A stretch of 40,343 nucleotides of DNA from Escherichia coli (lineage in GTDB: Bacteria > Pseudomonadota > Gammaproteobacteria > Enterobacterales > Enterobacteriaceae). Of this stretch, positions 12,981 through 17,529 are shown in pieces. The DNA lies in the NCBI RefSeq assembly GCF_003334355.1, contig NZ_QOWP01000033.1. One strand, given 5' to 3'. The notes below the pieces were generated by a model. That model ran no database searches. It saw only the letters and a program-made list of their open reading frames with translations, and was not told the DNA's origin. How positions within the stretch are numbered: the stretch's first letter is position 1; every line of letters begins with the position of its first letter. A program made the position numbers and the translations under genes.

Positions 12981-14159
12981 ATGTTTACTAAACGTCACCG
13001 CATCACATTACTGTTCAATGCCAATAAAGCCTATGACCGGCAGGTAGTAGAAGGCGTAGGGGAATATTTACAGGCGTCACAATCAGAATGGGATATTTTC
13101 ATTGAAGAAGATTTCCGCGCCCGCATTGATAAAATCAAGGACTGGTTAGGAGATGGCGTCATTGCCGACTTCGACGACAAACAAATCGAGCAAGCGCTGG
13201 CTGATGTCGACGTCCCCATTGTTGGGGTTGGCGGCTCGTATCACCTTGCAGAAAGTTACCCACCCGTTCATTACATTGCCACCGATAACTATGCGCTGGT
13301 TGAAAGCGCATTTTTGCATTTAAAAGAGAAAGGCGTTAACCGCTTTGCTTTTTATGGTCTTCCGGAATCAAGCGGCAAACGTTGGGCCACTGAGCGCGAA
13401 TATGCATTTCGTCAGCTTGTCGCCGAAGAAAAGTATCGCGGAGTGGTTTATCAGGGGTTAGAAACCGCGCCAGAGAACTGGCAACACGCGCAAAATCGGC
13501 TGGCAGACTGGCTACAAACGCTACCACCGCAAACCGGGATTATTGCCGTTACTGACGCCCGAGCGCGGCATATTCTGCAAGTATGTGAACATCTACATAT
13601 TCCCGTACCGGAAAAATTATGCGTGATTGGCATCGATAACGAAGAACTGACCCGCTATCTGTCGCGTGTCGCCCTTTCTTCGGTCGCTCAGGGCGCGCGG
13701 CAAATGGGCTATCAGGCGGCAAAACTGTTGCATCGATTATTAGATAAAGAAGAAATGCCGCTACAGCGAATTTTGGTCCCACCAGTTCGCGTCATTGAAC
13801 GGCGCTCAACAGATTATCGCTCGCTGACCGATCCCGCCGTTATTCAGGCCATGCATTACATTCGTAATCACGCCTGTAAAGGGATTAAAGTGGATCAGGT
13901 ACTGGATGCGGTCGGGATCTCGCGCTCCAATCTTGAGAAGCGTTTTAAAGAAGAGGTGGGTGAAACCATCCATGCAATGATTCATGCCGAGAAGCTGGAG
14001 AAAGCGCGCAGTCTGCTGATTTCAACCACCTTGTCGATCAATGAGATATCGCAAATGTGCGGTTATCCATCGCTGCAATATTTCTACTCTGTTTTTAAAA
14101 AAGCATATGACACGACGCCAAAAGAGTATCGCGATGTAAATAGCGAGGTCATGTTGTAG
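12981..14159 (+). CDS. xylR: Xylose operon activator, AraC/XylS family
   Basis: 392 aa; periplasmic-binding-protein-like N-terminal domain and C-terminal AraC-type HTH (…LSINEISQMCGYPSLQYFYSVFKK…). Confidence 0.95.
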   Translation: MFTKRHRITLLFNANKAYDRQVVEGVGEYLQASQSEWDIFIEEDFRARIDKIKDWLGDGVIADFDDKQIEQALADVDVPIVGVGGSYHLAESYPPVHYIATDNYALVESAFLHLKEKGVNRFAFYGLPESSGKRWATEREYAFRQLVAEEKYRGVVYQGLETAPENWQHAQNRLADWLQTLPPQTGIIAVTDARARHILQVCEHLHIPVPEKLCVIGIDNEELTRYLSRVALSSVAQGARQMGYQAAKLLHRLLDKEEMPLQRILVPPVRVIERRSTDYRSLTDPAVIQAMHYIRNHACKGIKVDQVLDAVGISRSNLEKRFKEEVGETIHAMIHAEKLEKARSLLISTTLSINEISQMCGYPSLQYFYSVFKKAYDTTPKEYRDVNSEVML

Positions 14160-14203
14160 CGATGATGAGAATTGTCGGCGTCACATCAGGTAACGCTGCG
14201 TGG

Positions 14204-14278
<75 letters not shown>

Positions 14279-14300
14279 TCGTAGCTCAACTGCCTGAGAC

Positions 14301-14340
14301 AAAGTAAAAAGCCTTATCCGACTGACAAGTCGGATAAGGC
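14301..14340 (-). terminator. Rho-independent terminator of bax
   Basis: Perfect 12-bp stem GCCTTATCCGAC (14311-14322) / GTCGGATAAGGC (14329-14340) with loop TGACAA; the A-run just below it on + gives a U-tract on the minus-strand transcript. Confidence 0.65.
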
Positions 14341-14354
14341 TCAAGGAAATGCAA

Positions 14355-15179
14355 TTACATATGCGCCGCGATTAACCGTTGGTTATCCTGGTACATTGCG
14401 AACAGGTAGTTGTTATAACTCTTCCCTTTGGTCGAGTAGCCCTTCAGCTTGTGAATCATCGCTGTGGCAGTCACTTCCTGATCCGCTTTACGCAGCTGCG
14501 CACGCGATTTACGGAACGAAGAGTAAGCCGGGTGCGTATTCAGGTTAGTGACATAGGCGCTCACCGATTCTTTGACAGAACTAAACTGTGAGTACCCTTT
14601 CACTTTACCTGGCGCATTGGTACAACGTCCTTTCATGCATTTCATGCCGAACAGGTTGTTGTTGTTGCGCGCCAGCTTCGACGTTCCCCAACCGCTTTCT
14701 GCTGCAGCCATCGTCGCCACCATACTGGTGGGGATAATGTCTACGCGTTCAAGCAAGGTATTCCACGGGATTTTTCGCGTATTACCGGACCACTTCACCT
14801 TGTAGCGTTTGGCGATGTCTTTCAGACGCGCACGCTCAGCAGGTGACCATTGGCCCTGATACTGTTTTGAAATGAGCCAGTTACGTTCCGCAGTAATGGC
14901 CGCATTTTGGCTGGTAATGTAAGGCATTACGGTCCGGAGAAACGCCTTTTTCCTTGGTGTTCCGGAAGGGTATTTTCGCAAATCAGGAAGTGAACTACTC
15001 TTTGCACTATTGCGAGAATACTCTTGTTTACTGCTTACCTGTTTATTACTAGCTTTAGTTAAGTGGGACTTTTGACTCGCTGTTGTTGTGTGCGTCTTCG
15101 CTAACACCTCACTCGAAAACACCAGAGTGAGTAACATAAGAATCATCGCCCCATATCGTCGTATGGGAGTCAAAATCAT
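14355..15179 (-). CDS. bax: Secreted putative glucosaminidase (Bax)
   Basis: 274 aa; N-terminal signal peptide (MILTPIRRYGAMILMLLTLVFSSEVLA), Ser/Lys-rich low-complexity linker, C-terminal globular domain. Confidence 0.85.
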   Translation of the reverse strand: MILTPIRRYGAMILMLLTLVFSSEVLAKTHTTTASQKSHLTKASNKQVSSKQEYSRNSAKSSSLPDLRKYPSGTPRKKAFLRTVMPYITSQNAAITAERNWLISKQYQGQWSPAERARLKDIAKRYKVKWSGNTRKIPWNTLLERVDIIPTSMVATMAAAESGWGTSKLARNNNNLFGMKCMKGRCTNAPGKVKGYSQFSSVKESVSAYVTNLNTHPAYSSFRKSRAQLRKADQEVTATAMIHKLKGYSTKGKSYNNYLFAMYQDNQRLIAAHM

Positions 15180-15399
15180 CAGGTCTCCTGGTCGGATTTA
15201 ATCATTCCAACACCTTATATTTTTCACAAATTTGAGAGTTGAATCTCAAATCATATCAAAAATAGCTGTCAAGAGCACCCCAAGGAATAGTCCAAATCTG
15301 AAACTATGTCACGTGTTAACGATTCAGATTGGCGCTAAATCGCAGAAAATGTGGGGGTTATCGCAAAATTCAGCCGTTTTTTGCGCGAGATCGCTCACC

Positions 15400-15440
15400 C
15401 TTGCTTCTCATCCTGTGGACTTACCGCTCAGGGATGAGTT
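15400..15440. promoter_or_regulatory. Candidate MalT-box region upstream of malS
   Basis: MalT-box-like hexamers: TCATCC at 15408-15413 (reverse orientation) and GGATGA at 15432-15437, 60-90 bp upstream of the malS ATG. malS is a known MalT-dependent gene. Confidence 0.3.
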
Positions 15441-15498
15441 TTGTTTGGCTTATCGCTGGCAAACTGTCTGAAATCGCAGCAATAAGGACTCATCCGCC

Positions 15499-17529
15499 AT
15501 GAAACTCGCCGCCTGTTTTCTGACACTCCTTCCTGGCTTCGCCGTTGCCGCCAGCTGGACTTCTCCGGGGTTTCCCGCCTTTAGCGAACAGGGGACAGGA
15601 ACATTTGTCAGCCACGCGCAGTTGCCCAAAGGTACGCGTCCACTAACGCTAAATTTTGACCAACAGTGCTGGCAGCCTGCGGATGCGATAAAACTCAATC
15701 AGATGCTTTCCCTGCAACCTTGTAGCAACACGCCGCCTCAATGGCGATTGTTCAGGGACGGCGAATATACGCTGCAAATAGACACCCGCTCCGGTACGCC
15801 AACATTGATGATTTCCATCCAGAACGCCGCCGAACCGGTAGCAAGCCTGGTCCGTGAATGCCCGAAATGGGATGGATTACCGCTCACAGTGGATGTCAGC
15901 GCCACTTTCCCGGAAGGAGCCGCCGTACGGGATTATTACAGCCAGCAAATTGCGATAGTGAAGAACGGTCAAATAATGTTACAACCCGCTGCCACCAGCA
16001 ACGGTTTACTCCTGCTGGAACGGGCAGAAACTGACACATCCGCCCCTTTCGACTGGCATAACGCCACGGTTTACTTTGTGCTGACAGATCGTTTCGAAAA
16101 CGGCGATCCCAGTAATGACCAGAGTTACGGACGTCATAAAGACGGTATGGCGGAAATTGGCACTTTTCACGGCGGCGATTTACGCGGCCTGACCAACAAA
16201 CTGGATTACCTCCAGCAGTTGGGCGTTAATGCTTTATGGATAAGCGCCCCATTTGAGCAAATTCACGGCTGGGTCGGCGGCGGTACAAAAGGCGATTTCC
16301 CGCATTATGCCTACCACGGTTATTACACACAGGACTGGACGAATCTTGATGCCAATATGGGCAACGAAGCCGATCTACGGACGCTGGTTGATAGCGCACA
16401 TCAGCGCGGTATTCGTATTCTCTTTGATGTCGTGATGAACCACACCGGCTATGCCACGCTGGCGGATATGCAGGAGTATCAGTTTGGCGCGTTATATCTT
16501 TCTGGTGACGAAGTGAAAAAATCGCTGGGTGAACGCTGGAGCGACTGGAAACCTGCCGCCGGGCAAACCTGGCATAGCTTTAACGATTACATTAATTTCA
16601 GCGACAAAACAGGCTGGGATAAATGGTGGGGAAAAAACTGGATCAGAACGGATATCGGCGATTACGACAATCCTGGATTCGACGATCTCACTATGTCGCT
16701 AGCCTTTTTGCCGGATATCAAAACCGAATCAACTACCGCTTCTGGTCTGCCGGTGTTCTATAAAAACAAAATGGATACCCACGCCAAAGCCATTGACGGC
16801 TATACGCCGCGCGATTACTTAACCCACTGGTTAAGTCAGTGGGTCCGCGACTATGGGATTGATGGTTTTCGGGTCGATACCGCCAAACATGTTGAGTTGC
16901 CCGCCTGGCAGCAACTGAAAACCGAAGCCAGCGCCGCGCTTCGCGAATGGAAAAAAGCTAACCCCGACAAAGCATTAGATGACAAACCTTTCTGGATGAC
17001 CGGTGAAGCCTGGGGCCACGGCGTGATGCAAAGTGACTACTATCGCCACGGCTTCGATGCGATGATCAATTTCGATTATCAGGAGCAGGCGGCGAAAGCA
17101 GTCGACTGTCTGGCGCAGATGGATACGACCTGGCAGCAAATGGCGGAGAAATTGCAGGGTTTCAACGTGTTGAGCTACCTCTCGTCGCATGATACCCGCC
17201 TGTTCCGTGAAGGGGGCGACAAAGCAGCAGAGTTATTACTATTAGCGCCAGGCGCGGTACAAATCTTTTATGGTGATGAATCCTCGCGTCCGTTCGGTCC
17301 TACAGGTTCTGATCCGCTGCAAGGTACACGTTCGGATATGAACTGGCAGGATGTTAGCGGTAAATCTGCCGCCAGCGTCGCGCACTGGCAGAAAATCAGC
17401 CAGTTCCGCGCCCGCCATCCCGCAATTGGCGCGGGCAAACAAACGACACTTTTGCTGAAGCAGGGCTACGGCTTTGTTCGTGAGCATGGCGACGATAAAG
17501 TGCTGGTCGTCTGGGCAGGGCAACAGTAA
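15499..17529 (+). CDS. malS: Periplasmic alpha-amylase (GH13)
   Basis: 676 aa; signal peptide MKLAACFLTLLPGFAVAA and GH13 catalytic region motif GFRVDTAKH. Confidence 0.96.
   Translation: MKLAACFLTLLPGFAVAASWTSPGFPAFSEQGTGTFVSHAQLPKGTRPLTLNFDQQCWQPADAIKLNQMLSLQPCSNTPPQWRLFRDGEYTLQIDTRSGTPTLMISIQNAAEPVASLVRECPKWDGLPLTVDVSATFPEGAAVRDYYSQQIAIVKNGQIMLQPAATSNGLLLLERAETDTSAPFDWHNATVYFVLTDRFENGDPSNDQSYGRHKDGMAEIGTFHGGDLRGLTNKLDYLQQLGVNALWISAPFEQIHGWVGGGTKGDFPHYAYHGYYTQDWTNLDANMGNEADLRTLVDSAHQRGIRILFDVVMNHTGYATLADMQEYQFGALYLSGDEVKKSLGERWSDWKPAAGQTWHSFNDYINFSDKTGWDKWWGKNWIRTDIGDYDNPGFDDLTMSLAFLPDIKTESTTASGLPVFYKNKMDTHAKAIDGYTPRDYLTHWLSQWVRDYGIDGFRVDTAKHVELPAWQQLKTEASAALREWKKANPDKALDDKPFWMTGEAWGHGVMQSDYYRHGFDAMINFDYQEQAAKAVDCLAQMDTTWQQMAEKLQGFNVLSYLSSHDTRLFREGGDKAAELLLLAPGAVQIFYGDESSRPFGPTGSDPLQGTRSDMNWQDVSGKSAASVAHWQKISQFRARHPAIGAGKQTTLLLKQGYGFVREHGDDKVLVVWAGQQ

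Follow-up and report, generated by a model that had tools for sequence, protein, structure and literature searches.

The bax gene of Escherichia coli encodes a member of glycoside hydrolase family GH73, by profile, by fold and by its general-acid residue, and the same coding sequence holds an element of about 107 nt whose codons are frozen across seven genera and inside which the dominant premature 3' end of the bax transcript has been mapped. The explanation that best accounts for the protein, to which we assign a probability of roughly 0.6, is that Bax is a Sec-exported, peptidoglycan-cleaving GH73 enzyme with E161 as proton donor, expressed during slow growth. The gene, its family assignment, its upstream ORF (uORF) and the effect of CspD on its mRNA are already published or annotated, so that this finding is in itself already known. 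What the present analysis adds are the domain boundaries, the lineage-specific loss of a hairpin carboxylate, and the synonymous-site-frozen element at a mapped 3' end; in a known gene, it is this putative regulatory element that is the main source of interest.

Identity and genomic context of bax

The window is the whole 40,343-nt stretch of E. coli DNA that was analysed. In it, the bax ORF spans 14355..15179 on the minus strand (274 codons plus stop), and its translation carries TTTASQKSHLTKASNKQVSSKQEYSRNSAKSSSLPD exactly. An earlier sequence-only reading had named this gene bax, an identification that holds: the NCBIfam equivalog NF007681 'protein bax' matches residues 1-274 of 274 with 564.2 bits against a curated cutoff of 193, and the DNA is 100% identical to annotated E. 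coli bax. The gene was found in 5426 of 5426 complete E. coli genomes. Its dN/dS relative to Salmonella is 0.068 for the whole gene and 0.033 for the part encoding the GH73 domain, the latter lying at 0.03-0.04 against Salmonella and Enterobacter.

The placement of the gene between xyl and mal genes is likewise correct: xylR, on the plus strand and convergent with bax, ends at 14159, and malS, on the plus strand and divergent from bax, starts at 15499. The order xylR-bax-malS is retained in Salmonella, Enterobacter, Citrobacter, Lelliottia, Kosakonia and Yokenella; synteny with xylR and malS is confined to Enterobacteriaceae, and the neighbours of six distant homologues vary. In Leminorella grimontii (contig positions 5860..9573), the bax homologue (51% identity) adjoins, in convergent orientation, a trio of MBOAT, DUF459-SGNH and Ape1_N-GDSL genes, which looks like a peptidoglycan O-acetylation cluster of the patA-patB-ape1 type; the adjacency of bax may be a coincidence. 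In two homologues with the short hairpin described below, one of them from a Kushneria cluster (Halomonadaceae) and the other from metagenome contigs, bax lies downstream of slt (soluble lytic transglycosylase), DUF1232 and htpG, and also adjoins a PhoPQ-like two-component system (contig positions 240..4815); coincidence is a possible explanation of the slt-bax adjacency in Halomonadaceae too. Upstream of malS, at 15380..15470 of the window, two blocks are conserved between genera, AACTCATCCC and CAGGA(T/G)GAG, which may resemble MalT-box sequences.

Downstream of bax, a stable hairpin runs directly into a U-tract, so that the terminator attributed to the gene by the sequence-only reading is indeed present. 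The hairpin (14342..14309, minus strand) has a perfect 15-bp stem with 7 GC pairs and a 4-nt loop and is followed by UUUUUACUUUGU; its fold energy is -26.3 kcal/mol (z=-6.4 relative to shuffles). Its arms are complementary at 12 of 12 positions to a neighbouring REP/BIME half-site at 14224-14235. The xylR-bax spacer (14161..14341) contains a REP/BIME-type palindrome and gives a sub-threshold match to the REP-derived Rfam family naRNA4 at 14161-14236; owing to this REP-like spacer and to the terminator arms, a 1.3-kb query had matches at a median of 9 sites in each E. coli genome.

Table 1. Features of the bax region (window coordinates; signed positions are counted from the bax start)
Feature	Position	Strand	Remarks
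Candidate extended -10, TGaTATGAT	15250..15258	-	Proposed by eye; predicts a transcription start near -63
uORF MIKSDQET (8 codons), most likely baxL	15179..15205	-	Last base of its TGA is the first of the bax ATG (TGATG)
Term-seq 3' end, +12 (or +22)	15168; MG1655 3737166	-	Just past baxL stop and bax start; Adams 2021
Dominant Term-seq 3' end in bax, +167 (or +177)	15013; MG1655 3737011	-	Adams 2021, supplementary tables
Third Term-seq 3' end, +352 (or +362)	14828	-	Adams 2021
Nucleotide-frozen element in bax CDS, +144..+250 (~107 nt)	14930..15036	-	~93% of positions invariant in seven genera
Predicted Sec-type signal peptide, codons 1-27	15099..15179	-	R7/R8, 11-residue hydrophobic core, VLA before K; read from sequence
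Variable S/K/T-rich disordered linker, codons 28-47	15039..15098	-	pLDDT ~50-59; dN/dS 0.64 vs Salmonella
Codons 48-64, VSSKQEYSRNSAKSSSL	14988..15038	-	Predicted disordered, yet conserved in protein and DNA
Bax-family N-terminal helical extension, codons 65-141	14757..14987	-	Helices 74-105 and 113-125 pack against the GH73 core
GH73 (PF01832) catalytic-type core, codons 142-267	14379..14756	-	
E161 in AAAESGWG, candidate general acid	14697..14699	-	Invariant in 88/88 representatives
Shortened beta-hairpin KCMKGRCTNAPGKVKGYSQF, codons 180-199	14583..14642	-	C181/C186 pair, no acidic residue
bax intrinsic terminator	14299..14342	-	15-bp perfect hairpin and U-tract; arms REP-like

The leader, baxL and premature 3' ends

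The gene had been described as monocistronic, a description that is too simple, as the baxL uORF overlaps its start and both published premature 3' ends and CspD control apply to it. The ORF encoding MIKSDQET is preceded by AAGGTG and is the sole ATG-initiated uORF overlapping the bax start, and most likely corresponds to the published baxL. Its frame and its overlap are kept in Salmonella and Enterobacter, there as TAATG. Such a conserved, overlapping short ORF with a Shine-Dalgarno-like sequence is what distinguishes uORF-regulated genes, and evidence of translation is published: baxL was detected by ribosome profiling and by tagging, and introducing a stop codon into it raises expression of the downstream gene (Weaver 2019).

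Morita and colleagues found little full-length baxL-bax mRNA in LB and more of it when CspD was overproduced; in M9-acetate and M9-glycerol the full-length form is cspD-dependent, and truncated transcripts occur. The RNA determinant of the CspD effect could not be mapped in that work. Term-seq provides three 3' ends within bax. The dominant one, at +167, scores 228,364 in one condition and 493,614 in another and is marked as not Rho-dependent, while those at +12 and +352 are weaker or specific to one condition (Adams 2021). The tabulated 61-mers match the window exactly, and the positions given here assume that the tabulated sequence runs 10 nt beyond the 3' end, as is supported by the distance column of the table (11 and 166); otherwise they become +22, +177 and +362.

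The 5' leader (15180..15262, minus strand) is far more conserved than the synonymous sites of the gene, with 87% of positions -20..-6 invariant in seven genera. A scan of the bax region for the sigma-70 consensus returned no promoter. At the position of the candidate extended -10 element Salmonella has TGcTAGAAT, and the published northern probe starts at -63.

A frozen element inside the coding sequence

Conservation of the coding sequence is unevenly distributed. Pairwise codon identity at degenerate sites is 1.00 over codons 46-60 and 0.92 over codons 61-75, against 0.54 in the GH73 domain, and two blocks of the frozen element, +146..+175 (30 nt) and +191..+205 (15 nt), are 100% invariant in the seven genera. 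The core blocks persist in Leminorella, whose protein is 51% identical, and a possible stem there carries one compensatory change. The dominant Term-seq 3' end (+167) falls inside the frozen block, and the highest C/G ratio of the bax mRNA, 1.57 at +186..+315, covers the 3' half of the element. This rut-like excess of C over G is only suggestive, the 3' end being flagged as not Rho-dependent in Adams 2021.

Several accounts of the element were considered and rejected. The stability of the local RNA fold does not reach significance (z=-1.26), and the seven genera show no covariation. Pairing with the leader or the Shine-Dalgarno region is weaker than that of shuffled or other windows. As to an overlapping ORF, a TAA stop interrupts a GTG-initiated sense ORF in three genera, and the starts of the antisense ORFs are not conserved. 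The element is not a repeat, as each genome holds one copy. A search for Rfam families in the bax leader and coding region gave no matches. We tentatively propose that the element may be an undescribed cis-acting RNA, which would either gate elongation into bax, as the site of premature 3'-end formation and the target of CspD-dependent read-through acting jointly with baxL translation, or define a stable 5' RNA of about 230 nt that has its own role, the protein then being a single-carboxylate GH73 used only in slow growth.

Predicted export signal and linker

The sequence-only reading saw in Bax an exported protein, and the expected features are there: R7 and R8 are followed by the hydrophobic run AMILMLLTLVF and by SSEVLA ahead of K28, that is, a charged n-region, a short hydrophobic core and a V-L-A motif. 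Bax would accordingly be predicted to reach the periplasm, with cleavage of the signal before K28. The mature protein is strongly basic (pI about 10.4; 43 K+R vs 12 D+E).

What follows had been taken for a low-complexity linker of about 50 residues. Residues 28-75 comprise 23% S, 15% K and 12% T, with mildly lowered entropy (~3.1 bits vs 3.5-3.8 elsewhere), and AlphaFold pLDDT values of 50-59 over residues 24-60 indicate disorder. The description suits codons 28-47, which are truly variable in both sequence and length and are not conserved outside Enterobacteriaceae; one enterobacterial Bax (P0108, alignment columns 42-68) has a 27-residue S/K-rich insertion, SSHKHSKTLSSSKKVSSKTISSKNVSSK, within this variable half, which thus tolerates length change, unlike the frozen half. 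It does not suit codons 48-64, which are conserved, with codons frozen at the nucleotide level in seven genera, so that this stretch is not simply filler.

The conserved domain and the Bax family

A profile search for a glucosaminidase domain, which had been suggested as a check, gives a match to Pfam Glucosaminidase PF01832 (GH73) over residues 142-267 (E=1e-18, 68.6 bits). A glycoside-hydrolase domain is thus detectable, where the lack of one would have counted against the assignment. All seven PHROG matches (7/7) are endolysin families, and the domain has a lysozyme-like alpha-lobe fold that can be superposed on solved GH73 domains. An exhaustive search of 1.84 billion representative proteins yielded 3607 Bax-related clusters in which homology spans approximately residues 60 to 270, whence the conserved unit consists of the GH73 core and a helical extension of about 80 residues (residues ~65-274 in all). 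Invariant or near-invariant residues of the extension are F80, K77, P86, N92, R99 and Y126. A hydrophobic N-terminus, a variable linker and a domain of about 210 residues follow one another in nearly all of 88 family representatives. The earlier claim of a glucosaminidase-like globular domain is therefore sound as regards GH73 fold and family, but the domain is larger than the Pfam core (65-274) and lacks the family's usual hairpin Glu; the label 'glucosaminidase', as applied to Bax, should be read as a statement of fold and family.

Catalytic residues and the shortened hairpin

E161 of Bax aligns with E184 of FlgJ, in ALESGWG, and the role of this general-acid Glu is described in the GH73 literature (PMC4752226, PMC9108991). 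Y248, S249 and Y255 are invariant in the family, GYSTKGKSY of Bax aligning with GYATDPNY of FlgJ (the C-terminal Tyr motif). FlgJ, Auto, TM0633 and AtlA also depend on a second Glu, carried by a mobile beta-hairpin: FlgJ E223Q has residual activity only, and for AtlA an inverting mechanism has been proposed in which E246 acts as general base (PMC4752226, PMC9108991). In GH73 clusters 1-2 this hairpin Glu is E223 in FlgJ, E156 in Auto and E246 in AtlA.

The extended beta-hairpin with its second catalytic Glu, characteristic of clusters 1-2, is missing from E. coli Bax. Its hairpin, CTNAPGKVKGYSQF, is 6-7 residues shorter than the family consensus CGxVPxxRxxGxxHEVxxF, no D or E occurs between residues 162 and 203, and column 195, which is E in 70 of the 88 representatives, is G in E. 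coli. This column of the Bax family is likely the equivalent of FlgJ E223, no stronger term being used because the profile alignment is of low confidence in that stretch. In most of the family (80% of representatives) the hairpin is longer and bears a conserved (H/Y)E motif; the short form is common to Enterobacteriaceae, Leminorella and Halomonadaceae (Kushneria, Chromohalobacter, Cobetia). An aligned acidic residue is absent in 6 of the 8 short-hairpin representatives, E. coli and Leminorella included, and the other two, Cobetia among them, keep a Glu nearby. The clade without the hairpin Glu has kept E161 throughout, which argues that this residue still matters. At the base of the stub hairpin, C181 (present in 85/88 representatives) and C186 (84/88) probably form a disulfide which, if formed, would fit a periplasmic location.

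Is Bax an enzyme?

In the explanation that we favour, Bax would be a Sec-exported, basic periplasmic protein in which the disordered linker leads into the domain of about 210 residues made up of GH73 core and helical extension. Its most likely function would be to bind the glycan strands of peptidoglycan and to cut the GlcNAc-beta-1,4-MurNAc bond, the proton being donated by E161. Bax lacks the hairpin carboxylate used as general base by FlgJ and AtlA, and catalysis would therefore have to make do with a single enzyme carboxylate; it might be substrate-assisted through the 2-acetamido group, or recruit another residue or a water molecule as base, and might be weak. Translation of baxL and the premature 3' ends at about +12 and +167 would hold Bax production low in fast growth, and full-length mRNA would rise when CspD is abundant, in slow growth on acetate or glycerol; with such a CspD-linked rise, Bax would probably be a wall-remodelling enzyme of slow growth or stationary phase.

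Enzymatic activity of E. coli Bax is plausible but not assured, as the missing hairpin Glu is required in FlgJ and AtlA. The main rival is that enterobacterial Bax is a dead or nearly dead GH73 derivative that binds glycan strands in a lectin-like, scaffolding or regulatory capacity instead of cutting them, which we consider unlikely although by no means far-fetched. The hairpin Glu, whose equivalent FlgJ and AtlA need (PMC4752226, PMC9108991), was lost together with 6-7 residues of the hairpin, and the cleft of E. coli Bax has further changes at otherwise near-invariant family positions (Q157M, F169L, G187T, H194K). In agreement with the earlier statement that the role of Bax is uncharacterised, the searchable literature, where results are swamped by the apoptosis protein BAX, yielded no enzymatic characterisation, and we found there no activity assay, structure or clear phenotype; a bax deletion in Salmonella left association with Caco-2 cells unchanged (PMC4937416). 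The invariance of E161, Y248, S249 and Y255 across the short-hairpin clade, down to about 40% identity, would however be unexpected after catalysis had long been abandoned, and GH73 precedents exist for working without the hairpin carboxylate, which is dispensable in some enzymes and absent in some sequences, a substrate-assisted route having been suggested (PMC4752226). Strong purifying selection, the retention of E161 in all short-hairpin lineages and these precedents together favour an active, mechanistically atypical glucosaminidase.

Two further readings concern the substrate and the location of the protein. Bax could be an active glycosidase that acts on another GlcNAc polymer or an imported glycan (for example poly-GlcNAc, enterobacterial common antigen or chitin-type oligosaccharides) and not on peptidoglycan. 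A remodelled cleft and an extra N-terminal helical module could shift specificity, and the position between sugar-utilisation genes is retained in six other genera; but close relatives in structure and sequence all act on peptidoglycan, bax is transcribed separately from its convergent and divergent neighbours, and outside Enterobacteriaceae the informative neighbours are wall-related (pat/ape-like in Leminorella, slt in Halomonadaceae), all of which makes this the least probable of the readings, and a very improbable one. We regard as improbable, to a lesser degree, that the N-terminal segment remains uncleaved and anchors Bax in the inner membrane, with the domain tethered by the disordered linker and so able to reach the wall. 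Nearly all of the 88 representatives have an N-terminal hydrophobic segment, as signal peptide, membrane anchor or lipobox; many have long hydrophobic N-termini (~20 residues) with no obvious cleavage motif, about 10 of the 88 have a lipobox, and some members appear membrane-anchored. The variable linker that follows the hydrophobic segment in all those members suggests that tethering is ancestral. Against this, the hydrophobic core of E. coli Bax is short, at about 11 residues, and a good -3/-1 motif, V-L-A, comes after it, as would be typical of a cleaved Sec signal.

Significance

To our knowledge, Bax is, besides flagellar FlgJ, the only protein of E. coli with a periplasmic peptidoglycan glucosaminidase fold, and we know of no housekeeping peptidoglycan glucosaminidase activity demonstrated in this species. 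If active, Bax would add to the wall enzymes of E. coli a class of glycan-strand cutter that is insensitive to MurNAc modifications, and would offer a test case for GH73 enzymes that work without the hairpin base. As the uORF, the premature 3' ends and CspD keep bax off in fast growth, standard experiments in LB would miss the protein, and this early-transcript control points to slow growth on poor carbon sources as the time to look for it. With the frozen coding-region element, the CspD/baxL mechanism, for which published work failed to map the RNA determinant, acquires a definite sequence to target.

Comparison with known systems

A close known system is the C-terminal glucosaminidase domain of Salmonella FlgJ (PDB 5DN4/5DN5; GH73). 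Unlike FlgJ, Bax has no rod-capping N-terminal domain and carries a predicted Sec signal in place of flagellar export; its hairpin is much shorter and lacks an E223 equivalent, and it adds the helical extension of about 80 residues and the Cys pair. An assignment of Bax as a FlgJ was rejected, as TIGR02541 scores 19.3 bits against a cutoff of 193, on the GH73 part only, and a rod-binding domain is absent. In the catalytic domain of AtlA from Enterococcus faecalis (PDB 7QFU; GH73), hydrolysis with inversion depends on E212 and hairpin E246, and the hairpin closes over the substrate (PMC9108991), whereas the hairpin of Bax holds no residue able to take the role of E246. Tge2 of Pseudomonas protegens (PDB 4KT3) is a type VI secretion effector, delivered between cells and paired with an immunity protein; Bax differs in being, by its sequence, Sec-exported, in its housekeeping-type gene and in having no immunity-like neighbour. 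The wider 'Bax' family (COG-type FlgJ-related, in Gammaproteobacteria and others) shares the architecture and the invariant residues of E. coli Bax, which differs in belonging, with Leminorella and Halomonadaceae, to the branch with the short hairpin and not to the majority with the (H/Y)E type.

At the level of regulation, baxL-bax resembles other E. coli operons, such as mdtU-mdtJI, pssL-pssA and argL-argF, that have a short translated uORF ahead of or overlapping the main ORF, early Term-seq 3' ends, and more full-length mRNA when CspD is overproduced. It stands apart from these in that its dominant 3' end lies about 167 nt into the coding sequence, inside a synonymous-frozen block of about 107 nt.
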